In this document: positions 2,197 through 45,308 of the stretch, piece by piece
Numbering within the stretch: position 1 is the stretch's first letter
How the letters are laid out: the number at the start of each line of letters is the position of its first letter
DNA from: Candidatus Latescibacterota bacterium
GTDB lineage: Bacteria > Latescibacterota > CBDEFO01
Assembly (NCBI GenBank): GCA_965237525.1
Contig: CBDEFO010000008.1
Span: forward strand, 192,001 to 256,000
Direction of reading: 5' to 3'
Length of the DNA: 64,000 bases
Translations under genes and position numbers: made by a program
The notes under the pieces: generated by a model
The model's input: the letters and a program-made list of their open reading frames with translations, nothing else
Database searches by the model: none
Told to the model about the DNA's origin: nothing

Positions 2197-2267
2197 CTAA
2201 TACGATTGGACTTTGCTGTTGAGAGTTATCGATTTCAATTCATAAGGAAATTGTGGGGGTGTACGCT

Positions 2268-4550: not shown

Positions 4551-4627
4551 AAGACCATTAGGATATTTGTCTGTTCTCACAGTGATGGATTTCATCTTAA
4601 ATGTTCTTGAGAAGGGAGGCTAAAAAG

Positions 4628-11548: not shown

Positions 11549-11690
11549 GCTTCTTTATTTATTTATAACCGTCTTTAGCCAGCAGATGAGGAGGTGACAC
11601 AAATTCACCCGGGTTTGGGTACTACAACGCAGCAATATAGGTAATTGCACACTCATTTCAGTTAATGATTCTCAATGAAAGGATAGCCTG
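11549..11690 (+). repeat. Intergenic spacer duplicated at 14667-14805
   Basis: Near-identical ~140 bp between a CTD stop codon and the next start codon. Confidence 0.9.
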
Positions 11691-14666: not shown

Positions 14667-14805
14667 GCTTCTTTATTTATTTACAACCGTCTTTAGCCCG
14701 CAGATGAGGAGGTGACACAAATTCACCCAGGTTTGGGTACTACAACGCAGCAATATAGGTAATTGCGCATGCATTTCCGTTAATCACTCTCAATGAAAGG
14801 ATAGC
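14667..14805 (+). repeat. Second copy of the intergenic spacer 11549-11690
   Basis: Direct sequence comparison. Confidence 0.9.
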
Positions 14806-15161
14806 ATGATGAAGAAGATATTTTCGGTATTCATGGCTCTGGGATTTGTCGTTTTTGGCGTTTCGATGGGATCCGCTCACCTGAGGTTAGATCAGACCTT
14901 TGTCGCTCCCATGCTTCCCATTGATGGGACTCCGGGGATGCCACCTAATTTCCCTGTGAGGGTTGTACTAGACGGTGATGGGTCCGAGTGGGATATGCTT
15001 CCTCGACAGTACTATTTAACGCACGATGATCTGAAAGAGGTCATCAAAGGGGGGTTTCCTGAGCCGAACCCCTCCAGCCTCGCCGTGAAGGTAGTCTGGG
15101 GATGGAGCCCGGTGACCAACTTGCTCTATGTGATAGAGGAGAGATTTGACGACCGCTCTAA
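14806..15161 (+). pseudogene. 5' fragment of a paralog of 11691..14666, cut by IS1182 copy 2
   Basis: Similar signal peptide and LDGDGSEW...GW...ERFDD pattern; reads into the IS end. Confidence 0.85.
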
Positions 15162-16680
15162 AAGCCTTGTGAAAAACCCTTAGATTCAGAAAGTAGTATA
15201 AAACAAGCATTGATAAAGCAGCTCCGATGTATTATATTATGTTATTGATAATATTATACATGGAGGAAACAATGACCCCACAAAAGCAGGAACAGACAAA
15301 TCCGATGTTTCATTATTTTCAGATGGAGGATTTAGTTCCCGAGGATCATATCCTTCGTCAGATTGATGAGGCAGTTGATTTTTCATTTGTACGAGACGTT
15401 GTATCAGATTGTTATTGCCCTGACAATGGCAGACCCGGTATTGATCCTGAATTAGTTGTTCGAATGATCCTTATTGGCTATCTGTATAATTTGAGTGAGA
15501 ATCGGCTCTGTCAGGAAGTGGGGATGCATGCGGCATATCGGTTGTTTTGTCATCAGACATTTGATGATGCGGTTCCGGATAGGAGCACGATCAACAAGCT
15601 TCGCAATCACAAGTGGGCATCCAGTGGGTTGTTTGAACGGATAATGCGTCAGGTAGTCCAGTGTTGCATAGATGTCGGTCTTGTGAGCGGTAAACACCTT
15701 AGTGTCGACGGCACTCAGATACAAGCTGATGCTTCAGTGAAAAGTATTGAGCCGATAGAACCCCCTTTTTCTCTTGATGATTATCTCAAGGGAATCGGTT
15801 TTGAAGGTGATAAGACAAAGGGTAGGTCCGGGCATCCTCAGGATAAAGACTTTCATGGTGAAAAGTGGACGAACCAAACACACCGTTCGACTACAGACCC
15901 CGACGCGCGCTTATACAGCAAATCGAAGGGCAAAGGGGCTTTTCTCTCGTTTATGGGCCATGATCTGATCGACACAAAAAGCAGAGTAATCCTTGAGACT
16001 CAGGGCACGCAGGCGACAGGGACAGCAGAGCCCGAAAGTGCCCTTAAGATGGTAGATGACCTTGAAACATACACCATGCCCAAAGACATTCAGACACTTA
16101 GTGCCGATACCGGTTACGGTTCTGGTAATTTTATCGCTGATGTACTTGACCGGGGAATCATACCCCATATTCCTCTGCGAGCCGATGAGAAGATTGAACC
16201 GATTCCTACATGGAAAAACAAGACAAATCCAGCACATATTCAGGCCGAACGGGATAGAAAAGTGCGAGAGGCGAAAGCCAGAAATCATGCACGGTCTATC
16301 TCATTAACAGCTGACTACAAACTCTCCCGGAGACTCCGTAAACGCAGTGAACATATCTTTGCTGAAGCCAGGCAACAACACGGTATGGGACGAGCCCGTT
16401 ACAGAGGACCAGCCTCACTGAATGAACAGTTGAATCTTGTTGCAACAGTACAGAATCTCAAGAGGCTTGTATCTTTCATAAGAAGGGGGAAAGCGTCTAT
16501 GTGTGCCCTGTCTGTCAAAGACAGTGCATCCTGTTCTTCAAACAGCTCCTATTCCTTGCTGACCAGAACTCTGATAAGACTATTTTGCTTATTCCACAGC
16601 AAAACGATACGATATGCTACTCTTTGACCCATAATCGGCGCTTCAGACGCTGCCTGGGACATAACTATTTCACAAGGCTT
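15162..16680 (+). mobile_element. IS1182-family element copy 2 (1519 bp)
   Basis: IR AAGCCTTGTGAAA; flanks CTAA (left) and TTAA (right) differ. Confidence 0.92.
15272..16627 (+). CDS. IS1182-family DDE transposase (intact)
   Basis: EDLVPEDH, GRPGIDP, VDGT, ADTGY, RKRSEHIFAEA motifs; RBS GGAGG before MTPQK. Confidence 0.92.
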   Translation: MTPQKQEQTNPMFHYFQMEDLVPEDHILRQIDEAVDFSFVRDVVSDCYCPDNGRPGIDPELVVRMILIGYLYNLSENRLCQEVGMHAAYRLFCHQTFDDAVPDRSTINKLRNHKWASSGLFERIMRQVVQCCIDVGLVSGKHLSVDGTQIQADASVKSIEPIEPPFSLDDYLKGIGFEGDKTKGRSGHPQDKDFHGEKWTNQTHRSTTDPDARLYSKSKGKGAFLSFMGHDLIDTKSRVILETQGTQATGTAEPESALKMVDDLETYTMPKDIQTLSADTGYGSGNFIADVLDRGIIPHIPLRADEKIEPIPTWKNKTNPAHIQAERDRKVREAKARNHARSISLTADYKLSRRLRKRSEHIFAEARQQHGMGRARYRGPASLNEQLNLVATVQNLKRLVSFIRRGKASMCALSVKDSASCSSNSSYSLLTRTLIRLFCLFHSKTIRYATL

Positions 16681-19238
16681 TTAAAGTGGATCCGGATACC
16701 GGAACTGTAATACCCCTCTTAAGGGATCCCTCCATTACCTTTCCGTACGGGGTTGCCATCGATCACTTGGGAGATGTCTTCATCTCGAATCTGGCTCACT
16801 TTAATCCAGTGACAGGGGAGTTCGAAGGGGGAAAGCTGATCAGGCTGGACCCTGCCACAGGAGAATTTACCACCGTAGTTAAAGCTGAACTGGATTCTCT
16901 GGACTCCTTCTTCTCTTTAGGCGCTATAGGCCTTGATGCAAGTGGTGCTGTAATCGCCATAGACCCTGGTTCTTTAGCATTCGGTCTCCAGCCAAAGATA
17001 CTCAGGATCGATCCAGCTACAGGTGAGGTTCGGATTTTAGCGTCTGGTCCACCCTTCCGCACTCCTGTAAATCTTGCGGTGGCAGAGGACGGTTCCATCC
17101 TCATTGCCGATTCCAACGCTGACCCTAAAGGGCTTGGAATCACCACAGGAGCGATCTTTAAACTGGATCCGGAGACTGGAAGTCTGACCACCTTAGCTAC
17201 TGGCGGTTTGGTTACAGGCCCGTTCGGATTGGCTCTGGGCAAATCTGGGGAGGTCGTGTGGACCAATATCTCTAAGAGGGTCCGTATATTGGACGTTAAG
17301 GTCTCAGGAAACTTAGCCGTGATATCCAATGAGGTCCCTCCATTTCCAGACTTTTTGGATGCTGACCTGGGAGGGATCCAGATCCTGGACGTCTCCGATC
17401 CGTCAAACCCCGTGGAACTCGTCAAGTATACAAACAAGCTTACATTCGGCGTCCACAATTCCTTTATAGACGGGAGTCTTGTCTATCTGGTCAGCGATTT
17501 TGACGGCCTCCGGATAGTAGATATATCTGATCCGTGGCAGCCCTTCGAGATAGCACACTGGGAATTGCCCATATCAGAACACCCTGAGCGAGGTTTTAGG
17601 TTCAACCATCTCCACGATGTCTCTGTCTCAGGAAACAGAGCCTATTTAGCCTATTTGGAGGCCGGACTCAGGATCCTGGATGTCGCAGATCCCGAAAACC
17701 CAAGGGAGATCAGCGCTTACACCTATCCCGACGCCTCTACGCACAGTGCGGAACCCTCCGCAAATGGGGATTTCGTTTATATAACCGATGAGCAGCCCGG
17801 CGGCTTTATGCGGGTTATAGACATAAGGGACCTTTCCAGTCCCAGAGAAGTCGGCAGTTATAAAAGCTCCAGTCGTATCGTTGTTGGGAATCGAGAGGTC
17901 TCGATCCACAATATCCTTGTGGAAGGCGACCTTGTATACATAGGGTACTATCAGGACGGCTTCAGGGTTGTTGATGTCTCTGATCCGACGGACCCTGTAG
18001 AGGTCGGCTTTTACATCCGAAGCCAGAGCTACTCCCGGGGGTTATTAAACGGGGTCTTTACTTCCTTCCCCTCAAAGGGTCTGGCCTTCGTAAGCGATAC
18101 AGATCATGGACTTTTTATCCTCAGGTTCAGAAGGCCGTCTTACCTTGTCCGCAGCCGTGATGTTTCGGTGACCCCTCCTAAGGTGCACTCGGGTATTGAA
18201 ACTGATATGACCATCACTGCAAAGATCTCCCCTTCAGGGGACGGTGGAGGTCCGGTCAAAGTCACTGTGGATTTAAGCCCGATAGGCAGTGAGGTTGAAA
18301 TCCCTATGGCAGATGACGGAACTGGAGGCGATGAATTCTTTGGCGACGGGATATTCACTGCTTCGGTTAGCTTGGTGCCCATGGTCCTTACGAGAGAGAA
18401 CACCCTAACAATTACCGTCGAGGACACCGCTTCAGGCAGGGTCTTTGCCAGGAGCAAGGTCGAGCTCATTCCCTCAGATGATCTATGGATTTACAGGGAT
18501 GGGATCGAACCTGGATGGAAGGTTGAGCTCGTCGGACCCACCAGAGTTGAATCTGATCTGAAGTCCTCAAAATTCGTCTATAGTGGCAGCGCCTCTCACG
18601 CCATCTCGTCGTTACGCGGAGTAATCAGATATGTGTTGGACGATCCCAGAGGGATTGATCCCTTCTTCCTCTACACCCACCTGGAGTTCTACATCAACGG
18701 GGGAGATGCTTCGCGGCAGAATCCTATTACTGCGGGCAAGCAGTTGAGCAGCTTGGGGATTGTGCCGCAGCCGGACACCTGGCAGTTGGTGTCTATCCCG
18801 ATCTCAGAGGTCCCTGTTAACCAGGAAGGACGCATCGTGTCGATCCGAATCTATGGGGCGATGAAGGAGGCATTCTACCTCGACAATATAAGATTGGTGA
18901 CTCAGGAGATTGAAGAGATCAGCACGGCTGTGGACGAGTCAGAAGAGATGGCTATACCTTCAGGATACTCCCTTTCCCAAAACTATCCCAATCCGTTCAA
19001 CCCCCAGACAGTGATCCGTTATGACCTTCCACTCCAAAGCCATATTAACATGTCTGTCTATAACATAATGGGACAGAAGGTTGCGATATTGGCGGATAGA
19101 GAGATAGAAGCAGGCAGTTACTCTATAGTCTGGGATGGCAAAGATGACAATCAAAAGAGCCTTTCCAGCGGAGTCTATTTCTATCGAATGGTGACAGATG
19201 AATTCGTTCAGACGAGGAAGCTGTTATTGTTGCGGTGA
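16681..19238 (+). pseudogene. 5'-truncated secreted protein: NHL-like repeats, LVIVD repeats, choice-of-anchor X-like motif, jelly-roll domain, FlgD-Ig CTD
   Basis: Starts mid-repeat at the IS end with no signal peptide; repeated GLRILDVxDP; QNYPNPFNPQT. Confidence 0.8.
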
Positions 19239-19422: not shown

Positions 19423-20941
19423 AAGCCTTGTTAAAAACCCTTAGATTCAGAAAGTAGTATAGAACAAGCATTGATAAAGCAGCTCTGATGTATTATATTA
19501 TGTTATTGATAATATTATACATGGAGGAAACAATGACCCCACAAAAGCAGGAACAGACAAATCCGATGTTTCACTATTTTCAGATGGAGGATTTAGTTCC
19601 CGAGGATCATATCCTTCGTCAGATTGATGAGGCAGTTGATTTTTCATTTATACGAGACGTTGTATCAGATTGTTATTGCCCTGACAATGGCAGACCCGGT
19701 ATTGATCCTGAATTAGTTGTTCGAATGATCCTTATTGGCTATCTGTATAATTTGAGTGAGAATCGGCTCTGTCAGGAAGTGGGGATGCATGCGGCATATC
19801 GGTTGTTTTGTCATCAGACATTTGATGATGCGGTTCCGGATAGGAGCACGATCAACAAGCTTCGCAATCACAAGTGGGCATCCAGTGGGTTGTTTGAACG
19901 GATAATGCGTCAGGTAGTCCAGTGTTGCATAGATGTCGGTCTTGTGAGCGGTAAACACCTTAGTGTCGACGGCACTCAGATACAAGCTGATGCTTCAGTG
20001 AAAAGTATTGAGCCGATAGAACCCCCTGTTTCTCTTGATGATTATCTCAAGGGAATCGGTTTTGAAGGTGATAAGACAAAGGGTAGGTCCGGGCATCCTC
20101 AGGATAAAGACTTTCATGGTGAAAAGTGGACGAACCAAACACACCGTTCGACTACAGACCCCGACGCGCGCTTATACAGCAAATCGAAGGGCAAAGGGGC
20201 TTTTCTCTCGTTTATGGGCCATGATCTGATCGACACAAAAAGCAGAGTAATCCTTGAGACTCAGGGCACGCAGGCGACAGGGACAGCAGAGCCCGAAAGT
20301 GCCCTTAAGATGGTAGATGACCTTGAAACATACACCATGCCCAAAGACATTCAGACACTTAGTGCCGATACCGGTTACGGTTCTGGTAATTTTATCGCTG
20401 ATGTACTTGACCGGGGAATCATACCCCATATTCCTCTGCGAGCCGATGAGAAGATTGAACCGATTCCTACATGGAAAAACAAGACAAATCCAGCACATAT
20501 TCAGGCCGAACGGGATAGAAAAGTGCGAGAGGCGAAAGCCAGAAATCATGCACGGTCTATCTCATTAACAGCTGACTACAAACTCTCCCGGAGACTCCGT
20601 AAACGCAGTGAACATATCTTTGCTGAAGCCAGGCAACAACACGGTATGGGACGAGCCCGTTACAGAGGACCAGCCTCACTGAATGAACAGTTGAATCTTG
20701 TTGCAACAGTACAGAATCTCAAGAGGCTTGTATCTTTCATAAGAAGGGGGAAAGCGTCTATGTGTGCCCTGTCTGTCAAAGACAGTGCATCCTGTTCTTC
20801 AAACAGCTCCTATTCCTTGCTGACCAGAACTCTGATAAGACTATTTTGCTTATTCCACAGCAAAACGATACGATATGCTACTCTTTGACCCATAATCGGC
20901 GCTTCAGACGCTGCCTGGAACATAACTATTTCACAAGGCTT
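19423..20941 (+). mobile_element. IS1182-family element copy 3 (1519 bp)
   Basis: IRs (left has one G>T change); TTAA on both sides. Confidence 0.92.
19533..20888 (+). CDS. IS1182-family DDE transposase (intact)
   Basis: Near-identical to 15272..16627. Confidence 0.92.
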   Translation: MTPQKQEQTNPMFHYFQMEDLVPEDHILRQIDEAVDFSFIRDVVSDCYCPDNGRPGIDPELVVRMILIGYLYNLSENRLCQEVGMHAAYRLFCHQTFDDAVPDRSTINKLRNHKWASSGLFERIMRQVVQCCIDVGLVSGKHLSVDGTQIQADASVKSIEPIEPPVSLDDYLKGIGFEGDKTKGRSGHPQDKDFHGEKWTNQTHRSTTDPDARLYSKSKGKGAFLSFMGHDLIDTKSRVILETQGTQATGTAEPESALKMVDDLETYTMPKDIQTLSADTGYGSGNFIADVLDRGIIPHIPLRADEKIEPIPTWKNKTNPAHIQAERDRKVREAKARNHARSISLTADYKLSRRLRKRSEHIFAEARQQHGMGRARYRGPASLNEQLNLVATVQNLKRLVSFIRRGKASMCALSVKDSASCSSNSSYSLLTRTLIRLFCLFHSKTIRYATL

Positions 20942-23859: not shown

Positions 23860-23880
23860 CCCCGATAGATTCAATCGGGG
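23860..23880 (+). repeat. 21-bp palindrome CCCCGAT-AGATTCA-ATCGGGG (copy a)
   Basis: Perfect 7-bp stem; followed by an extra ATCGGGG. Confidence 0.9.
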
Positions 23881-32601: not shown

Positions 32602-34935
32602 ATGCACAGCTTCTCAAGAATCTCTCTGGCGATCACAGCTATCCTGACAGCGCTTTTTGGGGCTTTCCCCTCTTCTGCTCAACAGCCGGTCACCAGTGCC
32701 CGCGCCTTGGGGATGGGAGAGACCTTCCTGGCGATAGCTGACGATGGAAACGCGCTGTTCTACAATCCCGCAGGACTGCCCTCTTTGGGGCACCATGAGA
32801 TTGTCAGCGGATACGCCGATCTGTTCGGGATCGGGATAACGAACAACACGATAGGATATGTCTTCCCTGTAGATAACAACTATGCCCTTGGGTTCAACTG
32901 GGGACACCTGAGCTTTGAGGATCCCGAATTAGATTATAAGAAGGACAACTTCAAGTTATCCTACGGGCATAGGGTCTGGAAGGAACTTTCCTTTGGATCT
33001 GCTTTAAGATATATCACCACAGATATGATCCTGGACTCAAACTCGTTGGGGAAAGCCTCTGGATGGGGGATAGATATGAGTTTTCTGTATGCTCCGGTCA
33101 AGTGGCTTAAATTGGGGATGGTGGTGCAGGATGTGACAGATACAGAGGTGCAGTATGATGACGGGGGGACTGAGGTGATTGATCCCAGATCGTTCCAGTT
33201 CGGGACGGCCTATCGGCCGATAGACGATCTGACGGTGGCCCTGGATGTGGACGATCAACTCCATTTCGGCGGGGAGTATTGGCTCAGTGATAATATGTTG
33301 GGACTGAGAGGCGGCCTGCAGAAGGATCTGGATACCTCTGAGCCGATGACGTATTCGGGCGGAGCGAGCATCCGCTATAAGCTGTTCCAGTTCGACTACG
33401 CCTATGTCATACCGCCGACGTTGCCCTCCAGCCATCGCTTCTCCCTATCTCTCTCCTTCAACCTGTATCCTTCGATGGTGCGGATCACGGAGACAGAGAT
33501 CAATAACCTGTTCCCAGCGTTCCACAAGCGGTATGGCGTGCATCCACTGGGGAATGTGAAATTGGTCAACAGGGACGATAAGCCCTATCAAACTACGGTA
33601 AGCTTCTATATCCCCAAGTTGATGGATGCCCCTACAGAACAGCAGGTTATAATCCGGCCGAAGGAGACGAAGGAGGTTGGGGTTAAAGGGGTCTTTTCCA
33701 GTTCCGTCACCGATTTGACCGAGGATATACTGACGCAGGCGGAAGTCAGGGTCTCCTATACGACAGAGCGCAGGATGAGGTCGGACAGGGAGTCGGCCAG
33801 TTTCTATGTCTACAGTCGCAATGCGACTACCTGGGACGATGTGGGGAAGGCGGCGGCCTTTATCACATCCAATGACCCGATCATAGCTGGATTCGCTCGG
33901 CCCACCTTGGTCTCGTTCGAGGAGGAGATCAAGAACCTGGGGCGTGGCGGTAGGAATCTGATGAGGGCGATGGTGCTCTTCGATTCGGTGAACGAGTACG
34001 GGGTGCGCTACATCGCCGATTCCAACAATCCCTACTCCCGGGTATCTGCGGACAAATCCGCTGTGGACAACATTCAGTATCCTGTCGAGGTGTTGAGGAA
34101 GAAGTCGGGGGACTGCGACGATCTCACTGTGCTCTATTGCGCTCTTTTGGAGAACGTCGGTATTCCCACGGCGTTAGTGGATGCCCCTGGACACATCTAT
34201 ATGATGTTCGACAGCGGTGTTCCTATCCAAAAGGCTTACAGTCTCCCTATAGGCGAGAAACTGTATGTGGTGCGGGACGGCAATATTTGGATCCCTGTGG
34301 AGATCACCTTGTTCGGGAAATCTTTTATCGAGGCCTAGCGGTCCGGGGCAGGTGAATCCGCACGTCTCTTAGAGGAGGACAGGCTCAGGGTCGTGGACAC
34401 TTCGGATGCGTGGCAGGAGTATGAACCTTCCCCTCCTAAATTTGAGGGGGAGATTTCCGTGCCAACCAAGGAGCATATAAAGGGAGTTTTCTCCTCAGAT
34501 CGGTCGGGCTTGAAGGAGATGATGAATGCCTTTATAGAGCGCACCCACCTTGGGCCTCTGGGCGAGAGTCCAGAAGATTTTGATCTGCAATTTAACCTTG
34601 CCAAGATCTACACAGCGATCCGAGAGTACGACCGTTCGATCTCCGAATATCAACTGCTTTTGGAGTCAGGTGCGGATCCTGCTCGGGTATATAACAATAT
34701 AGGGAGACCCTACTTTTTGATAGGACAAGTAAGGGATGCGGCTGAAAGCTTCAAGCGGGCTATGGACTTGGATCCGGCCGATGAGGGGATCAAGAACAAC
34801 TTCGAGCTGGCAATTTCCTTTTTGGGGGATGAAGAGCGGATAGCATTTGCAAGAGAGATCGGCGTAGTCGTGCCTGAGGGGCTGAAGGCAGCCGACTTTG
34901 AGGTGGATGAGGAGAGTTTCTACTGGAGGGAGTAG
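32602..34935 (+). pseudogene. PorV/PorP-like beta-barrel fused to transglutaminase-like and TPR domains; internal TAG at 34336-34338
   Basis: ARALGMGE...DGNALFYNPAGL; GDCDD...GHIY...WIPVE; frame continues through the TAG into ORF 34393..34935. Confidence 0.8.
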
Positions 34936-35159
34936 GGATCGCTGATCACTGTCGATAATAGGAGCAAGAGATGCACAGGGACATTTGTCGGATAACAACG
35001 CTAACAGCTATCATCGCCATTGTCCTCGACGCTGCACCTGCAATGACTGGAGAGTGGGATAAGTTCACAACGGAAGACGGTCTGGCGGACAATGTGGTCT
35101 ATTCGATTTTGGAAGATAGCGGGGGCGATTTGTGGTTTGGAACCGCTGCAGGTGTTAGT

Positions 35160-36461
35160 GGTTATTTATCAAATGAAATCGGTGCACTTCTCTTTCGATC
35201 TTTGATTGATCTTGAATGATAGGTTTTCGACAATCTTTGGTTTCTGTTCTTTTTCAAAATGGATGTATAATTGTTCTTCTTTTAGGTTCCATTCAGCCAG
35301 GACAAAGTAGTTGGTGTAAGAGGAGGGAAGAGATACTTTCTCATTTAGGACATCGATAAAGGCTTTATCTGTCTGTTCTGTGTCCTGTTTGACTTGTCTG
35401 ATAAAATAGGTCTTGGGAATGAAATCTTTCTCGTTTGACTTCTCTTGCTTAGGTGGACGGTAGCCGGTGTATCTCTGTGATGAAAGATTAAACCATTCTA
35501 ACTTCTGATCAACTTCTTGTAAGCTTTTGAACTGAATTCTGTTCCAGAACTTCCTTGAAAATACAGAATTGTTGCCTTCTATAGATGCTTGAGAAAAGGG
35601 CCTTCTGGGAACGGCAAATATCGGAATCACTTGATTTTTCAAGAGAAACTGCATTGCTTTGCTGACATTCCTTTTACCTGAAACACTGCCAATAGTCGCC
35701 GAGCAATTGTCCACCTTAACGAAATCTGGTTTTTCAAACCTGTCAAAGAAAGACTGACACTTCTCGATAAAGTTAGTTGCTGTTTGACCGTCAACCCGCC
35801 GAAAATACCTTAACTTAGGCTCTTTCTTAAAGGAAAATCCAACGAAGTTGACCGGCTCAGTTCTGCCGGTAAGATACTTTTTACCAATAAAGTCTGATTC
35901 TAGGACTCTGCCTCCTGAAAGATAGTAAATGGTATACTCTGGATAACAAAGATAACGAGATGCACCCTTGTTTTTACCTTTCTTCCTTCTCTGGGAAAGT
36001 CCTAAATCTGAAAGCATTCTGCCGATAGTCGGCAACGACGGAGGAGGGGTGCTAGAATATCGATTCCTCCATTCTTGTTCAATAACAGTGGCTCCTGAAT
36101 AGAACTGATAAGGATCGTCCTCTAAGCTATGGTAAATCTCTTTGATTCTCTGTTCGTCAACTTTAGCCAATTTTCGCCTTTTTCCTTTTGGCCAACCCCG
36201 ATTATCTATGGCAAAATCCTGATCCGGAGATTTAGTCCAAGCTGTAACGAAATCATTGGAAACTCTCGCTTGTTTGATAACTTCTCGCTTTGACATTTCT
36301 TTCTTAAAATACATCTCGTTGACTTCTTGTCTTAATACGGCCAATCTCTCTTTGTCCATAGGACTCCGTAGATTAAAGTTAAGACAATCAACTCAACTTA
36401 ATCTACTAATACTCTAAACAAAGATCAAATTAGGTGCACCGATTTCATTTGATATTCAACC
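35160..36461 (-). mobile_element. 1302-bp IS with rve-type transposase, copy A
   Basis: ~27-bp imperfect IRs GGTT..TATCAAATGAAATCGGTGCA; 6-bp duplication GTTAGT. Confidence 0.92.
35169..36359 (-). CDS. DDE integrase-like transposase (IS481-like, family uncertain)
   Basis: ESD / VDN / SIE acidic triad; stop codon lies inside the IR. Confidence 0.8.
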   Translation of the reverse strand: MDKERLAVLRQEVNEMYFKKEMSKREVIKQARVSNDFVTAWTKSPDQDFAIDNRGWPKGKRRKLAKVDEQRIKEIYHSLEDDPYQFYSGATVIEQEWRNRYSSTPPPSLPTIGRMLSDLGLSQRRKKGKNKGASRYLCYPEYTIYYLSGGRVLESDFIGKKYLTGRTEPVNFVGFSFKKEPKLRYFRRVDGQTATNFIEKCQSFFDRFEKPDFVKVDNCSATIGSVSGKRNVSKAMQFLLKNQVIPIFAVPRRPFSQASIEGNNSVFSRKFWNRIQFKSLQEVDQKLEWFNLSSQRYTGYRPPKQEKSNEKDFIPKTYFIRQVKQDTEQTDKAFIDVLNEKVSLPSSYTNYFVLAEWNLKEEQLYIHFEKEQKPKIVENLSFKINQRSKEKCTDFI

Positions 36462-36656
36462 GTTAGTCGCTACAATGGGACGTGGACGACCTTCACCACA
36501 GAAGATGGTCTTGCGGGCGATGACGTCGTTTCCATCTTGGAGGATAGTGGGGGCAACCTGTGGTTTGGAACCGGTACGGGCGCGAGCCGTTATAATGGAG
36601 AGAGGTGGACAAGCTACACCAGTTCAAATGGTCTGACGAATAACCTGGTCTATTCG

Positions 36657-37427
36657 ATCTTGGAGGATACCGAGGGCAGCCTGTGGTTCGGAACTAACGG
36701 AGGTGCAAGCCGCTTTGATGGGACGTGGACGACCTTTACGGTGACAGATGGTCTGGCGGACAATGCGGTCAACGCAATCTTGGAGGATACTAAAGGCAAC
36801 CTGTGGTTCGGAACTAACGGAGGTGCAAGCCGCTTTGATGGGACGTGGACAACCTTTACGGTGACAGATGGCCTGGCGGACAACACGGTCAACGCAATCT
36901 TGGAGGATACTAAAGGCAACCTGTGGTTCGGAACTAACGGAGGTGCAAGCCGCTTTGATGGGACGTGGACGACCTTTACGGTGGCAGACGGCCTGGCGGA
37001 CAACACGGTCAACGCAATCTTGGAGGATACTAAAGGCAACCTGTGGTTCGGAACTAACGGAGGTGCAAGCCGCTTTGATGGGACGTGGACGACCTTTACG
37101 GTGGCAGACGGTCTGGCGGACAACACGGTCAACGCAATCTTGGAGGATACTAAAGGCAACCTGTGGTTCGGAACTAACGGAGGTGCAAGCCGCTTTGATG
37201 GGACGTGGACGACCTTTACGGTGGCAGACGGTCTGGCGGACAACACGGTCAACGCAATCTTGGAGGATACTAAAGGCAACCTGTGGTTCGGAACTAACGG
37301 AGGTGCAAGCCGCTTTGATGGGACGTGGACGACCTTTACGGTGGCAGACGGTCTGGCGGACAACACGGTCAACGCAATCTTGGAGGATACTAAAGGCAAC
37401 CTGTGGTTCGGAACTAACGGAGGTGCG
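36657..37427 (+). repeat. 120-bp coding tandem repeat, ~6.4 near-identical units
   Basis: ATCTTGGAGGATAC recurs every 120 bp. Confidence 0.95.
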
Positions 37428-40400
37428 AGTAGTTACGATGGGAAAAGGTGGACGCTCTACAAAGCTGCAGAAGATGGGCTGGGGGGAAATTGGGTCAATT
37501 CCATCGTACAAGATAGTGTGGATAACTTGTGGTTTGGGATTGGCGGGGATGTAAGGCGCGGAGGCGGCGGTGTAAGCCGCTATGATGAGATATGGACAAT
37601 CTTCAGCAAAGCTGACACCTTGGCGGACAATGAAGTCTGGACGAGCCTAAAGGATAGCCAGGGTAACTTGTGGTTTGGAACCAATGAAGGCGTCAGGCTT
37701 TATGATGGTGAAATGTGGACGGAATTCACCGAAAGCAACACAGATGTCGGCTTGGCAGACAATGTGGTGAATTCGATCTTGGAGGATAGTGAGGGGAACC
37801 TCTGGTTTGGAACTAAGGGAGGCGCAAGTCGCTACGATGGGACGTGGACAACTTACACGATATCAGATGGGCTGGCTGACAACTGGGTCAGTGCGATCTT
37901 GGAGGATAGCAAGAGAAACTTGTGGTTTGGAACTAAGGGAGGAGTTACCCGCTATGATGGGACGTGGATGAGCTTCACCACAGAGGACGGGCCGGCTGAC
38001 AACTGGGTTAAGGCAATCTTGGAGGATAGCAAGAGAAACTTGTGGTTTGGAACTGAAAGAGGAGTTACCCGCTACGATGGGACGTGGATGAGCTTCACCA
38101 CAGAGGACGGGCTGGCTGACAACTGGGTCACTTCGATTCTGGAGGACAGAGAAGGCGGCTTGTGGTTTGGAACTAATGGTGGAGGCGTCAGCCGCTATGA
38201 CGGGGAGAGATGGAGGACCTTCAACGTTGAAGATGACCTGGCAGACAATGTGGTCTGGACGATCCTGGAGGATAATGACGGTAACCTGTGGTTCAGTGGT
38301 GTGGGAGGGACAAGTAGATACAGAGTTGACAGGACGCCGCCGGACACGTTTATCTCCGAAGGTCCAGACGGCACGATCGGCGTCGGACAGGTTTTCTTCC
38401 AATATCGCGGGGGTGATAGATTCTTGCCAGACGAAGAAGTGCAGTATGCGTATGTCACCAAGAAGGATGGGGACAAGCCTGCAAGAGCCGATTGGTCCAG
38501 CTTTTCAGATATCACCTCTACCCTCACAGATCCGCTCCCCAGTGGAACCTACACTTTCTACGTTCGGACAGTGGACGAAGTTGGAAACATAGATCCCTCT
38601 CCCGCCGAAAGAACATTCACTGTGGATTTAACCCCGCCGATAGTGGGGATCAGTTCCCCATCGAGCAACGAAATTATTCATGGTAATGTAAACATTCGGG
38701 GCTCGGCCTTTGACAACTCCGATGTCCCCGATTTTACGAGCTATACGTTGGAATATGGGAGTGGCTCGGATGAGGACAAGATATCAGAATGGCTCAGGAT
38801 AAGGGATAGCGCGGTGAAGCCTGTCGTAAATGACCTTTTAGGCATGTGGGACACCGAGGGGCTATTCGGCACCTATGTTCTCCGGCTTAGAGCTGTGGAC
38901 GGCTTCGATCACAGGAGCAAGTTTGCCATCACCATCCACGTGGTTGCGGCAGCCGTTGAGGTAGATCACAGTAGTGGAGGACATATCACCGATTCAGCGA
39001 GCAAGGTGGATCTCTACATTCCCCCCAATAGTATTCCCAAGAGCACGCAGGTGACAATCACTCGCGTTGCGCTTGAAGGTGTCGCAAAGCCCTCTGCTCT
39101 GAATTTGCGCCTTATTGGGATGGCATACGATATCGGTCCGAAGGATCTTGCGGTCCTGAAACCTGCAACCTTTACGATATTCCTCAATGAAGACGACATA
39201 CAGGACGTGCCATATCTTCGGAAGTTGGCAATCTTTACCCGGTCATCTGTGGACAGTCCCTGGGAGAGAATCGGCGGCACGGTCGATGAGAGGACGGGGA
39301 GGATCACAGTAGCCCTCACACACTTTGGGAGATTTGCATTGATGGAGGATCTTTCTGCGGATGAGGGGAGTCTGTCCATTTCGGATGTGAACTGTCAGCC
39401 GAGGGTCTTTTCTCCAAAGGGAGGCGGCTACGATACCAAGACCACGATATCCTTTAATCTTGGAAGAAGGTCAGCGGTTACAGTGAAGGTTTACGATGTC
39501 TCAGGACGTTTTAAAAGGAAGTTGGTAGAGGACAGGGAAATGAATCGGGGGAGCAATGCGGTGGAATGGGATGGCAGGGATCATGAAGCGGAGGTAGTAG
39601 TAAGTGGACTCTATGTTGTGGCTGTGCAAGCTGATGGGAAGGTGGAAACTAAGACAGTGGGGGTGTTAAATAAGTGATTTCGGAACTGTGCATGCTCAAG
39701 GAACGAGGTCACAGGCAGTTGCTTTCTCGAATAGCTCTAACTGTGGTCATAGCTATTCTCCTCTACGCCACACCGGCAAGGGCACAAAGGTGGACCACCT
39801 ACACCACAGCAGATGGTCTCGCGGGAAATTCAGTCGGCGCGATCTTGGAGGATAGTGATAGCAACCTTTGGTTTGGGACTTCAGAGGGAGGTGTGAGTCG
39901 CTATGACGGGACGTGGACTACCTTCACCACAGCAGATGGCCTGACCAACAACTCGGTCAATGCGATCTTGGAGGATAGTGATAGCAACCTTTGGTTTGGC
40001 ACCGATATGGGGGTGAGCCGATATGATGGGTCGTGGACAACTTTCACCACAGAAGATGGCTTGGCGGGCGATGACGTCATTTCCATCTTGGAGGATACTG
40101 AGGGAAACCTGTGGTTTGGAACTGGTACGGGCGCGAGCCGCTATGATGGAGAGAGGTGGACAACTTACACTACATCAGATGGCCTGACGAATGACTTGGT
40201 CCATGCGATCTTGGAGGATACTAGGGGCAGCCTATGGTTTGCAACTAATGGAGGTGTAAGCCGCTTTGATGAGACGTGGACAACCTTTACGGTGACAGAT
40301 GGTCTGGCGGACAATGCGGTCTATTCGATCTTGGAGGATACTAAGGGCAATCTGTGGTTCGGAACTAACGGAGGTGCAAGCCGCTTTGATGGGACGTGGA

Positions 40401-42237
40401 CGACCTATACCGTGACCGATGGTCTGGCGGACAACAGGGTCAACGCAATCCTGGAAGATAGCGAGGGCAATTTGTGGTTTGGAACTGAGGGTGGTGCAAG
40501 CCACTATGATGGGTACAGGTGGAAGACCTACCGCACATCAGATGGCCTGGCAAACAACTTGGTCTTAACGATCTTGGGGGACAGCGAGGGCAATTTGTGG
40601 TTTGGAACTGGTGGGGGAGGAGTGAGCCGTTATAATGGGACGTGGACAACCTACGCTACAGCAGATGGCCTGGTGGACAATGGGGTCAGTGCAATTTTGG
40701 AGGATAGTGAGGGTAACTTGTGGTTTGGAACCGGTACCGGCGTGAGCCGCTTTGATGGGGACGAGTGGACGACCTACACCGCTGAAGATGGCTTGGCGCA
40801 CAACAGCGTTAATGCGATCTTGGAGGACAGAGAGGGGAGCTTGTGGTTTGGAACTAAAGGGGGCGTAAGCCGCTTTGATGGGGAAAGGTGGACAACCTAC
40901 ACCAGAACACAGATGGCCTAGCGGGCAACTGGGTCGAGGCAATCTTGGAGGATAGTGCAGGCAACCTGTGGTTTGGAACTGGTGGGGGAGGCGTGAGCCG
41001 CTTTGATGGGACGTGGGCGACCTACACTGCGACAGATGGTCTGGCGGACAACGTGGTCAATGCGATCTGGGAAGACAGTGAGAGCAACCTGTGGTTCGGA
41101 ACTGTGTCTGGCGTGAGCCGCTATGACGGAGAGCAATGGACAACCTTCACCACAGCAGATGGCCTGGCGGACGATGAAGTCAATGCGATCTTGGAGGATA
41201 GTGACGGCAACCTGTGGTTTGGAACCGGAGGAGGTGTAAGCCGCTTTGACTTGGGACATGGACAACCTATACCGTGACCGATGGGCTGGCACATAATGCG
41301 GTCAACGGCATCTTAGAGGATAGTAAAGGCAACCTGTGGTTTTTGAATGGACTTGCCGACAGAGGTGCAACACGATATGGAAGTGACAGGATACCTCCAA
41401 ACACTTTCATCTTAGATGGACCAGAAGGAATAGTCGGCACCCCACAGGCTTTCTTCCAATATAGCGGCGGTGACAGGTTTTCCCCAGGGACAGATGTGCA
41501 ATATGCTTATGCCATCAAGAGCAATCGGGATAGGCCTACTGAAGGCGATTGGTCAAACCTTTCACATTTTACCTCCCACCTTACAGATCCCTTCCCAAGC
41601 GGAACCTACACATTCTATGTAAGGTCGGCGGACAAAGCGGGAAACATCGATCCTACTCCCGCCAAAATGACCTTCACTGTGGATTTGACCCCGCCGATGG
41701 TGATGATAAATTCTCCATCCAATGACGAGATCATTCATGGGCAGGTAAACATCCTGGGCTCGGCTTTCGACAACTCCGATATTCCCGATTTTGAAAGCTA
41801 TGCGTTGGAATACGGGAGTGGATCGGATGAAAACAAGATCCTAGAATGGCGGACTATTAGGGAAGCTATGGAGCCTGTAAGGAGCCTTCTGGGCGTGTGG
41901 GACACCGAAGGGCTATTCGGCACCTATGTCCTCAGGCTCAGAGCTGTGGACGGCTTCGATCATCGGAGCAAGGACGTTATTACCGTCCACGTCGTTGCGG
42001 CAGCCGAGGTCGTGGATCCCCGTCGTGGGGGGCATATTACTGATGCGGTAAGCACGGTGGACCTCTACATCCCCCCCAACGGTATTTCCAAAAGCACCCA
42101 GGTGACGATCACTCCCGTTGCGATTGAGAGTATGACGAATCTGTCTGCTCCGAACGTACAGCTTATTGGGATGGCCTATGACATCGGTCCGCAGGGTCTT
42201 GAACTCTTGAAGCCCTCAACCTTTACGATGTCTCTTT

Positions 42238-42258
42238 CCCCTATAGAATCAATCGGGG
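42238..42258 (+). repeat. 21-bp palindrome (copy e), in-frame in coding sequence
   Basis: Encodes SPIESIG, absent from the paralog. Confidence 0.9.
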
Positions 42259-42358
42259 ATCAGGATAACATAGGGGAGTTGCCAGATCTCGGGAAATTGG
42301 CAATCTTTACTCAGTTATCTGAGGACAGTCTTTGGGAGAGGGTCGGCGGCACAGTCCT

Positions 42359-42390
42359 CCCCGATAGAATCAATCGGGGATCAATCGGGG
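42359..42390 (+). repeat. 21-bp palindrome plus half copy (copy f), in-frame in coding sequence
   Basis: Encodes LPDRINRGSIG, absent from the paralog. Confidence 0.9.
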
Positions 42391-42804
42391 ATCAGGGGGC
42401 GAGGAAGATCGCAGTAGCCCTCACACACTTTGGGAGATTTGCATTGATGGAGGATCTTTCTGATAAACAGGGGAGTCTTTCCATTTCGGATGTGAACTGC
42501 CAGCCGAGGGTCTTTTCTCCAAAGGGAGGCGGATACGACACCAAGACCACGGTATCCTTTCATCTTGGAAGAAGGTCAGCGGTTACAGTGAAGGTCTACG
42601 ATGTTTCTGGACGATTCAAGAGAAAGTTGGTCGAGGACAGGGAAATGAATCGAGGTAGCAATGCTGTCGAGTGGGACGGGAAGGATCATGAGGGAGATGT
42701 AGTGGTAAGTGGACTCTATGTGGTGGCTGTGGAGGCTGATGGGAAGGTGGAGACTAAGACAGTGGGGGTGTTGAATAAGTGATTTCATTTCAGGTCATTC
42801 TAGT

Positions 42805-43509
42805 TTAGTAGATCACCTCCTCCTGCTCGGTTCTGGCCATTTTCCCCTCGTAAAGCGATATAACCTCCCGGCTTAATGAACGCGCCTGAGAGGGATCGTG
42901 TGTTGTGAAAATGACGGTAGTATTCTCCTGCTCGTTTATATCCCTCATGAGTTCCTCTATGATATGGACGTTCTTGCTGTCTACGTTGGCGGTCGGCTCA
43001 TCTAAGAACAACACCTGAGGGCGCGCACAGATGGCCCTTGCGATCGCCGCCCTCTGTATCTCTCCTCCAGAAAGAGTTTGAGCCGCCCTCTTTTCAAAGC
43101 CTGAAAGCCCTACCATCGCAAGACACTTTGATACTCTCTCCTCTATGACATCTCCTGAAGTCTTGCGCACCTTCAATCCGTAAGCTACGTTCTTGAATAG
43201 AGTCCCCCGAAACAGAAATGGATTTTGCGCCACCAGTGTCATCAGGTTCCTGTATTCTGTCAGCTTCCCGTGGGATTTGTACACATCCTGCGACTCAAAA
43301 AGTATCTTCCCTTTAGTAGGTCGAAGGAGTAGACTCAGAATATGCAGAAATGTCGTCTTTCCCGACCCGTTGGGTCCCACAATAGCATATATCCCTCCTC
43401 TTTCGAACGAGAGATACGGAATATAGAGCCTGAAGCCCTGTGGATATGCCTTTTCAAACTCGTGAAGCTCGATTATCCCGTTCTGGACTCCTTTAGAAGT
43501 GGACGCCAC
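42805..43509 (-). CDS. tupC: Tungstate ABC transporter ATPase
   Basis: GPNGSGKT, LSGGE, LDEPTANVD; operon context. Confidence 0.82.
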   Translation of the reverse strand: MASTSKGVQNGIIELHEFEKAYPQGFRLYIPYLSFERGGIYAIVGPNGSGKTTFLHILSLLLRPTKGKILFESQDVYKSHGKLTEYRNLMTLVAQNPFLFRGTLFKNVAYGLKVRKTSGDVIEERVSKCLAMVGLSGFEKRAAQTLSGGEIQRAAIARAICARPQVLFLDEPTANVDSKNVHIIEELMRDINEQENTTVIFTTHDPSQARSLSREVISLYEGKMARTEQEEVIY

Positions 43510-43524
43510 CTTTTCTATCCTAAT

Positions 43525-43633
43525 GTAGGGGCGAACCCATGTGTTCGCCCAATAGAGACAAGGTATCCTGCAAAATCAATGTAAGGGCAGGGTCACCCCA
43601 CGGATCAGGGCAGACACACGGGTCTGCCCCTAC
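43525..43633. repeat. GTAG-type REP inverted pair
   Basis: GTAGGGGCGAACCCATGTGTTCGCCC ... GGGCAGACACACGGGTCTGCCCCTAC. Confidence 0.8.
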
Positions 43634-43647
43634 GACTGTCTACTTAT

Positions 43648-44340
43648 CTACGTCCCTTTGGACTGATAGTAGTGGAAAAGAAGATTTAGGGAAAAAGCCA
43701 CGCAAAGGAGCACTATTCCCAGCGCTATTCCGAATCCGAACTCGCCCTTGCTGGTCTCTAAAGCTATCGCCGTAGTCATTGTTCTTGTACTTCCCCTGAT
43801 ATTCCCGCCAAGCATCATAGCCGAACCGACCTCCGCGATCACCCTCCCGAATCCTGCTACGACCGCCGCTATGACGGAGAACTTAGCCTCACTGAGGACA
43901 GCCAGTGTCGCTTGAAACTCGCTCGCTCCCAAAGTTAGAGCCGTGGGCATTACCCTTTTGTCTATTCCCTGCGCCGCAGATAGAGAAAGAGCAGTTATTA
44001 TGGGCGTCGCTAAGATGAAACCCCCGATTACTATAGCTGTGGGAGTATATAAGAGTCCAAGAGATCCGAGCGGACCTCTTCGGGAGATCAGCGCATAGAT
44101 AGTCAGCCCTATAACCACTGTCGGAAGCGCCATGAGCGTGTTTAGGACCGTTACGACAGCGCGCTTTCCCCAGAAATTCCTCACTCCGATGACCAAACCC
44201 AGTGGCACACCCACAACACAGGCAAGAAGAGTGGCAGCAGACGATACCTTCAAAGAGACAAGAACCACATCGAATGTCTCCCCATCCAGCGATAAGATGA
44301 GCCAAAGGGCGCGTCGAATGCCTTCAGATATATAATCCAA
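43648..44340 (-). CDS. tupB: Tungstate ABC transporter permease
   Basis: LPTVVIGL, SRRGPLG, GFGRVIAEVG, GGNIRGSTR, ETSKGEF. Confidence 0.92.
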   Translation of the reverse strand: MDYISEGIRRALWLILSLDGETFDVVLVSLKVSSAATLLACVVGVPLGLVIGVRNFWGKRAVVTVLNTLMALPTVVIGLTIYALISRRGPLGSLGLLYTPTAIVIGGFILATPIITALSLSAAQGIDKRVMPTALTLGASEFQATLAVLSEAKFSVIAAVVAGFGRVIAEVGSAMMLGGNIRGSTRTMTTAIALETSKGEFGFGIALGIVLLCVAFSLNLLFHYYQSKGT

Positions 44341-44422
44341 CCTTTGTCTCCAGGGTCATCCACGAAGCGAAGCTTAGCCACAAAGACACAAAACCTCAAA
44401 CCTTAATATGTTTGGACCTTGT

Positions 44423-44443
44423 CCCCGATTGAATCTATCCGGA
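44423..44443 (-). repeat. 21-bp palindrome (copy g, degenerate)
   Basis: CCCCGATTGAATCTATCCGGA inside an AGCCAC...GTGGCT hairpin. Confidence 0.75.
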
Positions 44444-44462
44444 TTTGGTGGCTGAAGCGCCT

Positions 44463-45308
44463 TTACATTTTCCTGTCATAAGGGTGGAAGATCGTCTGTC
44501 CACCTACTCTAAAATCCTCTATTATCTTCTGCCCCTGTGGCGAGGTCATCCAGCCTATCAGCGCCATAGAATAGACATAGTTTACGTGGGGGTGAATACT
44601 CGGATTGATCGCTATGACTCCGTAGGGGTTGAACAACGCAGAGTCGCCTTCAAACAACACCACAATATCAACTTTTCGCGAATACGCAAGGAGTGTTCCT
44701 CTATCAATCAGGACGTAGGCCCCCTTCTCATCTGCTATCTGAAGCGTAGCCCCCATGCCCTGACCCGTCTCTATGTACCATTTTCCCGTCCGCGACCCCG
44801 GATTGAATCTATTGGGGGTCAATCGGGGATCTACCCCAGCCTTTTCCCATATCTCCATCTCCTTTTTATGAGTCCCGGAGTCGTCTGCTCTGGAGGCAAA
44901 AAGGGAGTTCTTTTCAAATATCCTCTTCATCGCCGAGAGAGCATCAGAGGTTTGAGCTATCCCAGCAGGGTCATCTCTTGGACCTGCTATCACAAAGTTG
45001 TTGTACATTACATCTCGTCTGTTGACCCCGAAGGCCTTTTCTGCGAAGTCTTCCTCGGCTTTCCTTGCATGCACGAGCACGACATCAACATCTCCGTTCT
45101 CCCCCAACTTTAGCGCTTTCCCCGTCCCCACAGCTATTACATCCACCTTAACACCAAATAGTTTCTCAAAAGGAGGGAGTAGCTCTAAAAGGAGACCTGA
45201 ATTTTCGGTACTCGTGGTCGTTGCAAGCTTTATTCTCTCTTGGGCATCCGCCGGAGACCATAAAAGGGTACAGATCAAAAGGAGGCTAATGGCTGCTATA
45301 ACCCTCAT
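44463..45308 (-). CDS. tupA: Tungstate-binding protein with palindrome-derived insertion
   Basis: ATTTSTENSGLL, VGTGKAL, SRADDSGTH, GQGMG. Confidence 0.93.
   Translation of the reverse strand: MRVIAAISLLLICTLLWSPADAQERIKLATTTSTENSGLLLELLPPFEKLFGVKVDVIAVGTGKALKLGENGDVDVVLVHARKAEEDFAEKAFGVNRRDVMYNNFVIAGPRDDPAGIAQTSDALSAMKRIFEKNSLFASRADDSGTHKKEMEIWEKAGVDPRLTPNRFNPGSRTGKWYIETGQGMGATLQIADEKGAYVLIDRGTLLAYSRKVDIVVLFEGDSALFNPYGVIAINPSIHPHVNYVYSMALIGWMTSPQGQKIIEDFRVGGQTIFHPYDRKM
44794..44828 (-). repeat. Palindrome plus half copy (copy h), in-frame inside tupA
   Basis: GACCCCGGATTGAATCTATTGGGGGTCAATCGGGG then ATC; encodes PRLTPNRFNPGS. Confidence 0.85.

Follow-up and report, generated by a model that had tools for sequence, protein, structure and literature searches.

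A gene that begins at position 32602 of the window, the whole 64,000-nucleotide stretch of DNA analysed here, joins an outer-membrane barrel to a cysteine enzyme and is followed by two genes for propeller proteins with near-identical C-terminal domains (CTDs). Is this barrel a dedicated adaptor for the cargos encoded beside it, and does the enzyme act on those cargos or on something else? The first-pass annotation proposed both, namely an adaptor with its own acyl-transfer enzyme for processing or anchoring its cargo. Literature searches (PorV/transglutaminase/type IX secretion and CHASE2/transglutaminase), with subscription journals and supplements outside their scope, returned no description of such a system.

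Architecture of the barrel-enzyme gene and its cargos

The reading frame with a barrel and GDCDD, GHI and VE motifs is confirmed, and it also specifies a signal peptide (residues 1-26 by inspection; 32602..32679, on the forward strand like all other parts of this gene and both cargo genes). This is followed by a 14-strand barrel with an N-terminal plug (32680..33465), an Ig-like domain predicted to be periplasmic (33469..33813), a transglutaminase-like cysteine enzyme core (33814..34446), TPR repeats detected by domain search and in the model (34579..34821) and a C-terminal tail ending ...SFYWRE, with a weak likeness to a G-V-R-G...Y-W motif (34873..34935). The Ig, enzyme and TPR regions account for about 490 residues C-terminal to the barrel. 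The barrel scores 100.8 bits against the PorV-family model NF033709 (cut-off 90) and 40.6 bits against the canonical-PorV equivalog NF033710, under its cut-off of 250, and is thus not a canonical stand-alone PorV. Its model is a FadL-like 14-strand barrel with a plug (pLDDT 93.8), for which the best Foldseek matches are the PorV chains 6h3i_F (top, E 5e-11) and 8gl6_F. The PorP/SprF model TIGR03519 has no match to the protein at E<=0.05, so that of the earlier label 'PorV/PorP-like' the first half stands and the second does not. The Ig-like domain aligns with a GH2 Ig domain over 102 residues (Z 12.9, rmsd 2.4).

Cargo 1 (34971..39677) comprises a signal peptide, Reg_prop propellers, a Y_Y_Y domain, an Ig domain, a ZU5-like domain and a CTD of the QPR..SP class (39372..39677); cargo 2 (39674..42782) has the same architecture, with its CTD at 42477..42782. 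Both genes end with a CQPRVFSPKGGG...KTVGVLNK domain, and the two CTDs, as first described, are near-identical (95/101 residues) and unlike the CTDs carrying QNxPNPFNP at 2-19 kb. On the type A model TIGR04183 both score 22.5 against a cut-off of 23, and among 32 members of the class that model matches 20 at E<=0.001 and the type B model TIGR04131 one; these CTDs are also absent from the 17 TIGR04131 matches in the genome. The comparison drawn earlier with type B CTDs is thus not borne out, and with TIGR03519 also unmatched a type B CTD/PorP reading was rejected. The Arg of the QPR motif is invariant (32/32), and ZU5 and CTD together form an extended cargo signal of about 240 aa.

A decaying copy of the module

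In this assembly none of the three genes is intact, which the first-pass annotation overlooked. In the barrel-enzyme gene an in-frame TAG (34336..34338) replaces Trp579, as judged from the homologue alignment and from contigs of other populations; the Trp is kept in 115/121 homologues and the site reads TGG in contigs of runs X2, X3, X6 and X7, with TAG retained in X1, which is the best holder and possibly the source sample, so that its agreement is not independent. The TPRs lie past this stop in an unchanged frame; hence the reported fusion of barrel, enzyme and TPRs holds for the enzyme and, in this copy, fails for the TPRs. Cargo 1 is split by an IS481-like element on the reverse strand (35160..36461; transposase 35169-36359) with terminal inverted repeats and a 6-bp GTTAGT target duplication, of which the genome has 47 near-identical full-length copies. 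Support for this insertion comes from the target duplication, because contigs of X1 and X3 extend 23-25 bases into the element, below the 31 bases of our bridging rule. Cargo 2 has two 2-base frameshifts, one near 40907, kept in X1, and one near 41250 that is absent from X1 and X2 contigs and is therefore probably an assembly error. Assembly error as the origin of every break was rejected for the TAG and the 40907 frameshift, both kept by the non-independent X1 contigs. Stop-codon readthrough was likewise rejected: of the two paralogues one has its TAG at a conserved Trp and the other at a conserved Lys, ARAGORN finds no amber or Pyl tRNA, and other populations have TGG. Both module copies of the genome are broken and open copies occur in a relative; the window copy is a decaying remnant.

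Barrel and CTD as a probable cognate pair

Conserved linkage, one of the checks proposed at the outset, singles out the barrel rather than the enzyme: a ZU5-CTD of this class, recognised by scoring best on a model made from the four CTDs of this genome, lies within 2.5 kb of 26/30 barrel-enzyme genes and of 0/50 barrel-less enzyme genes. Of 151 genomes of the phylum 60 have the enzyme, and these include all 56 that have the ZU5-CTD; 65/73 CTD matches are no more than 11 kb from an enzyme gene. Many of the loci counted are kin. A further check, co-folding, places the CTD of the L001 pair on its own barrel with a score of 0.86, against 0.00 for the best of three controls (none of them a type A CTD), with at least 97% of contacts agreeing between runs and a partner pLDDT of at least 82; the mark used is reached by 116/157 solved pairs and 2/215 mismatched pairs. 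A PorV-CTD complex has already been solved (8gl6), and the co-fold may score well because the predictor knew that structure. All confident contacts fall in barrel residues 1-249, that is, the seven outer loops and the plug tip. The CTD Arg meets a D-x-E-L loop (loop 2), conserved as D in 74/79, E in 65/79 and L in 74/79 sequences and, as a short loop, not common to the genome's seven other aligned PorV paralogues; loop 2 is accordingly the predicted binding site for the cargo CTD. Linkage and modelling together make it very probable that barrel and CTD form a dedicated pair, and the adaptor part of the original proposal is to that extent upheld.

The pair resembles canonical PorV with its type A cargo in barrel family, in fold and in the binding of the CTD by extracellular loops. 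The search for sprA and porU, another of the checks envisaged, found both in open frames, SprA as 2,011 codons and PorU adjoining a canonical PorV at C4:434.8k. Searches for GldM, GldN and PorP/SprF were blank, and their controls were silent too, so that they say nothing about absence. PorV, however, serves all type A cargo and the window barrel one cognate CTD class; the roughly 490 residues after the barrel are an addition here; and the predicted contact centres on the invariant Arg, with the C-terminal Lys of the CTD not among the contacts listed. In other respects the system recalls PorP/SprF and type B CTDs (PMC12618676, PMC9143113), with which it has in common one barrel per cargo class encoded in an adjoining gene, the barrel gene usually being downstream of the cargo, an extended signal (ZU5 + CTD in our case) and likely retention without cleavage. 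It differs in having a PorV-family barrel, a CTD nearer type A by score and a fused catalytic domain.

The enzyme core and its possible relation to the cargo

The core scores 25.5 bits on PF01841 (cut-off 23). Its candidate triad consists of C505 in GDCDD (34114-16), H531 in GHI (34192-94) and E567 in VE (34300-02), conserved in 121/121, 120/121 and 117/121 homologues respectively. The enzyme is one of a large family (1,124 clusters at 50% identity, E<=1e-30). Structural comparisons are less telling: Foldseek gives only weak matches to transglutaminase 2 (E 2.4e-4, TM 0.18), the VIA fold lists for the region are occupied by Ig and TPR matches without isolating the core, the profile search of solved structures has TPRs only among the 60 matches listed, and the core alone finds no credible relative among solved structures by sequence. 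Since the enzyme comes after the last strand of the 14-strand barrel it is predicted to be periplasmic, on the opposite side of the membrane from the CTD site, and we consider an active periplasmic enzyme likely.

This predicted placement argues against a PorU-like private sortase, the first-pass model, in which the CTD would be cleaved and the cargo anchored at the surface by acyl transfer. A conserved candidate Cys-His-Glu triad and tight linkage to the cargo speak for that model, as does the Gln of QPR, present in 27/32 CTDs; a cysteine enzyme adjoining CTD cargo is a feature in common with PorU. That Gln is missing from the other 5/32, and as a transglutaminase donor it was set aside as not invariant. 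The enzyme is of a different fold family from PorU, which acts at the surface, and the sortase model NF033707 has no match to the barrel-enzyme protein. The predicted topology would separate the enzyme from a CTD docked on the outer loops, the L001 co-fold has no confident contact between the two, 50 barrel-less enzyme genes lack such a cargo neighbour, and the genome has its own open PorU frame. The enzymatic part of the original proposal is thus not supported, and we regard a private sortase as very improbable.

Only slightly less improbable is a release or quality-control protease resembling LapG, trimming the cargo before export or cutting a retention element under the control of an inner-membrane receptor, and so working inside-out rather than outside-in. 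LapG, a Cys protease with a transglutaminase-like fold family, cuts its adhesin between two alanines (PMC3032545), and the LapG/BTLCP-LapD-LapA system links such an enzyme with both a surface protein and a membrane receptor, much as inner-membrane receptors adjoin the present module loci. The present enzyme is fused to a barrel, has Glu rather than Asp as third triad residue and makes no confident contact with the cargo; BTLCP, LapD and T1SS adhesin domains gave no hit in the protein or the neighbours scanned. No common cleavage site was seen in the cargos, which have no conserved motif outside the ZU5-CTD and widely different N-termini.

Relatives, CHASE2 receptors and a small partner

The gene set is widespread in uncultured bacteria. 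Elsewhere enzyme and TPRs come as a unit directly behind other fusion partners: Reg_prop-Y_Y_Y propellers, NHL propellers, small barrels or an nSTAND2 (STAND) NTPase, the last in an ORF without an evident signal peptide; the propeller fusions fall within the window gene's own clade, clades being assigned from a quick-version tree. We count these varied fusion partners as output-like behaviour. A further link, missed in the first-pass annotation, is to CHASE2 receptors, their outputs being cyclase, PP2C, kinase or CHAT; they lie in the fetched flank of 26/47 barrel genes and 9/50 barrel-less genes, against a single CHASE2 gene in the whole of the window's genome. In addition, a small downstream protein with the G-V-R-G...Y-W motif follows 37/100 enzyme genes against a background of 20/11,429 ORFs, by patterns written after the sequences were seen; 16/50 barrel-less loci have it.

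On these observations a signalling role is slightly favoured. The absence of CHASE2 from the window gene's own clade (0/18 fetched flanks), with the one CHASE2 gene of this 4.58-Mb genome unlinked to the locus and split, counts against it. Its peptide part is weakened by the tail of the window copy, which reaches only the 93rd background percentile on the partner motif, and by a profile test in which tails match in 7/35 genes with the partner and 7/63 without, leaving mutual exclusivity unsupported.

The missing CHASE2 in this clade is also a point for an anchor or tether, in which an adhesin would be bound non-covalently by the barrel, itself tied by the periplasmic region of enzyme and TPRs to the cell wall or a periplasmic partner, through transamidation or binding, like PorE-PorP-PG1035, with CHASE2 neighbours as co-regulated passengers. 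The dedicated pairing, the giant, adhesin-like FG-GAP/Big_5 cargos (up to 3,126 aa) and the binding of PorP by periplasmic PorE (PMC9143113) fit it as well. An anchor sits poorly with enzymes that have no barrel, such as that behind the STAND NTPase, and with the recurrence of CHASE2 and the small partner in barrel-less loci; we judge it unlikely.

A damage or invader alarm, sensing envelope attack and triggering defence or death, would draw on the nSTAND2 fusion, the caspase and CHAT neighbours of five loci, the patchy spread and decay of the module, and a resemblance between the Ig-enzyme unit and the N-terminal part of anti-phage ProA that is weak (E 1.1e-7) and falls far short of the cut-off. 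With most neighbours being cyclases and phosphatases, and no PADLOC family matching any of three proteins searched, it seems to us as improbable as the private sortase.

A possible sensor across the envelope

In the signalling reading, the SprA translocon would deliver a propeller protein to the cell surface, where its ZU5-CTD, left uncleaved, would keep it docked on the outer loops of the PorV-family barrel dedicated to it. An outside signal would be coupled across the envelope through the barrel plug to the fused cysteine enzyme, which would face the periplasm and serve as output. The enzyme may cleave or release an R-G/A...Y-W peptide, either the small partner or its own tail, to be read by an inner-membrane receptor. 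That an intact module is such a trans-envelope sensor we hold to be nearly an even call, and the R-G/A...Y-W motif as the enzyme's substrate to be doubtful. Somewhat more doubtful, as a whole, is a fuller version in which the docked, interchangeable propeller is T9SS-exported, ligand or sensor loss activates a periplasmic protease, the R-G/A...Y-W peptide it cuts is the long-sought CHASE2 ligand, and the protease-peptide-CHASE2 relay also works without a barrel in Proteobacteria, Nitrospirota and spirochaetes.

A parallel is the Sinorhizobium meliloti barrel NsrA, which works with the CHASE2 cyclases CyaK, CyaD1 and CyaD2 (PMC7529298, PMC13001267), an outer-membrane barrel receptor coupled to inner-membrane CHASE2 enzymes. 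In the present module the predicted sensing part is a propeller exported as a protein of its own, a cysteine enzyme would stand between barrel and receptor, and CHASE2 is unlinked in this clade. Of the FecR-CHASE2 operons (PMC5192318) the FecR-like partner is weak here (PF04773, E 0.044, in 1/12 proteins tested).

The very probable pairing of a PorV-family barrel with a ZU5-QPR CTD would extend cognate shuttle-CTD pairing beyond Bacteroidota, as a third and sharply defined pair, and the predicted contact of the CTD Arg with the D-x-E-L loop provides a testable point of specificity. The signals of CHASE2 domains were described as unknown in 2016 (PMC5192318); should the relay prove true, the R-G/A...Y-W peptide would be a named candidate ligand for them.

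Architecture and conservation of the barrel-enzyme protein

The plus-strand ORF starting at 32602 of the window encodes a signal peptide followed by a barrel, then an Ig domain, and after it a transglutaminase-like core. The barrel scores 100.8 bits against the PorV/PorQ family model (cut-off 90) and the core 25.5 against PF01841 (cut-off 23). Among the known groups compared, the protein can be assigned to two broad ones only, the PorV/PorQ family and the transglutaminase-like superfamily; the enzyme core was not singled out by fold searches. A TAG at 34336 ends the ORF; TPRs lie beyond it in the same frame, with the terminus ...SFYWRE at 34935, and read through the TAG the protein has 777 residues. 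A homolog search recovered 206 proteins at E<=1e-20, the best 120 of which were used for comparison. Barrel and enzyme are combined in 106 of the 121 sequences compared; the other 15 carry the enzyme but lack this barrel. The candidate triad is strongly conserved (C505 in 121/121, H531 in 120/121, E567 in 117/121), and W579, the position of the TAG, is kept in 115/121. The barrel-Cys-His-acid-TPR fusion proposed in the first-pass annotation is borne out in its domains and conserved candidate triad residues, with the TPRs cut off by the TAG. The closest named locus, L001 from Candidatus Latescibacterota, is 92% identical, and source names among the matches listed include KSB1, Eisenbacteria, Gemmatimonadota, Marinimicrobia and Poribacteria.

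A distinct CTD class belongs with this barrel

The genome has 83 CTD-like ends, comprising 48 of type A, 16 type B-like, 4 of the QPR class seen in the propeller cargos downstream of the barrel gene, and 15 unclassified. All 4 QPR-class CTDs sit in the window operon and its paralog. As the first-pass annotation noted, these CTDs differ from those at 2-19 kb; in HMM comparison the class lies closer to type A than to type B. Across 79 loci, scored with CTD models from this genome alone, 26/30 barrel-enzyme genes had within 2.5 kb a same-strand neighbor whose best score was for the QPR class, versus 0/50 barrel-less enzyme genes (8 of the 50 cut at the 5' end); for one of the 4 exceptions the upstream DNA is missing. 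The cargo usually lies upstream of the barrel gene in other loci and downstream in the window. Cargos have in common only a ZU5-like domain and the CTD, their N-terminal parts being Reg_prop or FG-GAP propellers or Big_5 repeats. In 151 genomes of the phylum, the enzyme occurs in 60 and the ZU5-CTD in 56, all within the 60, and for 65/73 ZU5-CTD matches an enzyme match is no more than 11 kb away; the model was built from neighbors of such genes, only 18 candidates were scored per genome, and kin are not independent. The QPR-class CTD is a separate class that belongs with this barrel, and the linkage is conserved across genomes.

A cluster of type A CTD proteins at 2253-19238 of the window carries cohesin, dockerin, ASH/Ig and LVIVD domains. 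Within it, one gene is apparently disrupted by an IS1182 copy (15227-16627); another copy of this element is located at 19488-20888. By inspection, tungstate-type ABC transporter genes (42805-45308, minus strand) come immediately after the operon, with no link to it seen.

Predicted topology and cargo docking

The AlphaFold model of the protein (pLDDT 93.8, pTM 0.82) has PorV chains as its best fold matches. By manual count its barrel has 14 strands, the last ending at residue 286, where stand-alone paralogs also end. Outer-membrane barrels with an even strand number have both termini in the periplasm; therefore the Ig, enzyme and TPR parts are predicted to be periplasmic.

Co-folding of the intact L001 pair (751 + 238 residues) scored 0.86 versus 0.00 for the best control, with at least 97% contact agreement between runs and partner pLDDT of at least 82; the co-fold mark is reached by 116/157 solved and 2/215 mismatched pairs. 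The confident contacts all fall within barrel residues 1-249, at the tip of the plug and in the loops after strands 1, 3, 5, 7, 9, 11 and 13, giving a predicted CTD-barrel interface of the kind that the first-pass annotation had anticipated. PorV binds CTDs on the same face (PMC10994853). Because the PorV-CTD complex is already solved, the co-fold pass is to be read as a sign of likeness rather than of binding. In the co-fold, the contact of the invariant CTD Arg is with a D-x-E-L loop, which is conserved in the barrel-enzyme family and not shared by the 7 other paralogs aligned. No confident contact involves the Ig, enzyme or TPR region, residues not named being uncertain rather than contact-free. 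Cargo and enzyme are predicted to occupy opposite membrane faces, and processing or anchoring of cargo by the fused enzyme, as originally suggested, is not favored by an enzyme predicted to be periplasmic and a CTD predicted to dock outside.

The enzyme as a probable mobile output domain

Among 50% clusters, 1,124 relatives of the Ig-enzyme unit were found at E<=1e-30. The unit follows several kinds of fusion partner: Reg_prop-Y_Y_Y propellers, by inspection with no membrane helix between; NHL propellers, in Nitrospirota and Proteobacteria; and apparent small barrels, in spirochetes. An nSTAND2 NTPase is joined to Ig-enzyme-TPR in locus L005 (L005:8678-11506), an NLR-like arrangement for which no signal peptide is evident. 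A quick tree built from 97 enzyme domains places this gene's type in a clade of 18 rows (SH-aLRT 99), 9 with the barrel and 9 barrel-less, the latter mostly direct propeller fusions. The propeller would therefore be tied functionally to the enzyme rather than being mere freight. By sequence comparison, the enzyme appears to serve as an output domain that moves between architectures.

CHASE2 receptors, whose outputs are cyclase, PP2C, kinase or CHAT domains, are found in the flanks of 14/30 barrel versus 9/49 barrel-less loci. They also occur in 14/20 additional regions, which were picked because they contain the module and include 2 duplicates of earlier loci (pooled, 26/47 versus 9/50). Against a signaling role, CHASE2 was nearby in none of the 18 rows of this gene's own clade. 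By inspection, the genome's only CHASE2 gene, a cyclase (G000:C8:1209700-1215900), is unlinked to the operons and split near its C-terminus; a split Ser/Thr kinase gene and a PP2C gene lie beside it. Caspase-family proteins (Peptidase_C14 or CHASE2-CHAT) are encoded directly downstream of the barrel gene in five loci (L024:12499-15975, L027:12391-15858, L043, L053 and L055).

A small protein with a T-x-x-x-G-V-R-G-A...Y-W motif, signal-bearing where inspected, is encoded downstream of 37/100 enzyme genes (background 20/11,429), and a looser form of the motif is the C-terminal end of 33/100 enzymes (background 42/2,023). In FecR domains a G-V-R-G-T hairpin resembles this motif, with weak Pfam support. 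When 98 enzyme tails were scored with a profile from 28 small proteins, 14 exceeded the 99th background percentile. Also speaking against the signaling reading, 7 of these have the small partner as well, and the window copy's tail stands only at the 93rd percentile (its paralog's on contig C3 at the 98.9th).

Decay of the operon in this lineage

The window copy is a pseudogene set. Besides the TAG in the barrel gene, cargo 1 (start 34971) is interrupted by an IS481-like element, which is flanked by a GTTAGT target duplication and has 47 near-identical copies in this lineage's genome, and cargo 2 has two 2-base frameshifts. The stop site reads TGG in contigs of sequencing runs X2, X3, X6 and X7 and TAG in X1; the first frameshift is present in X1, and the second is absent from X1 and X2. 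The second operon (G000:C3:328800-338400), with a barrel gene ~90% identical to the window copy, has a TAG in that gene at another residue, a TGA in cargo 2 and an open cargo 1. Of 184 ORFs sampled as background, 48 were set aside (partial, multicopy, <80% identical or no match), leaving 136 single-copy genes of at least 250 aa open in the same-genus genome G002, of which 12 are broken here. Since 5/6 genes are broken over both operons, and the barrel gene and three cargo frames are all open at the syntenic G002 locus, the system is decaying in this lineage.

A 21-bp palindromic repeat (210 matches genome-wide) occurs at 23860, 25257, 25438, 32472 and 42359, the last copy being an in-frame insertion within the ZU5 domain of cargo 2.

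Type IX context and relation to known systems

The sprA and porU genes named in the first-pass annotation were both found in the genome, as was canonical PorV; PorV-family barrels number about 9. A whole-genome search for GldM and GldN gave no match, its controls being likewise silent; possibly, the type IX system here lacks the known motor. The 16 type B-like CTDs end in Tyr and are clustered on contigs C4, C6, C7 and C8; a whole-genome search whose control was silent found no PorP, and no PorV-family match lies adjacent to these proteins. Four spirochete-labeled bins (L050, L073, L039 and L065) carry the barrel-enzyme gene, adjoined by CTD cargo in 3/4, and their genomes contain long frames, of 879-2,344 codons, that match SprA weakly and under the cut-off; no such frame was found in the L068 genome. 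A type IX-like translocon may possibly exist outside the FCB group.

The module resembles the PorP/type B pair in how cargo is handled (PMC12618676; PMC9143113), NsrA-CHASE2 in probable purpose (PMC7529298; PMC13001267) and LapG in enzyme class (PMC3032545). Of the earlier label of a PorV/PorP-like barrel, the PorV part holds at family level, and the likeness to PorP/type B concerns cargo handling only. No description of the barrel-enzyme fusion was found in the literature searched. Taken together, the sequences point to a genuine variant of type IX cargo handling that is widespread, apparently has not been described before, and would most likely be used for sensing.
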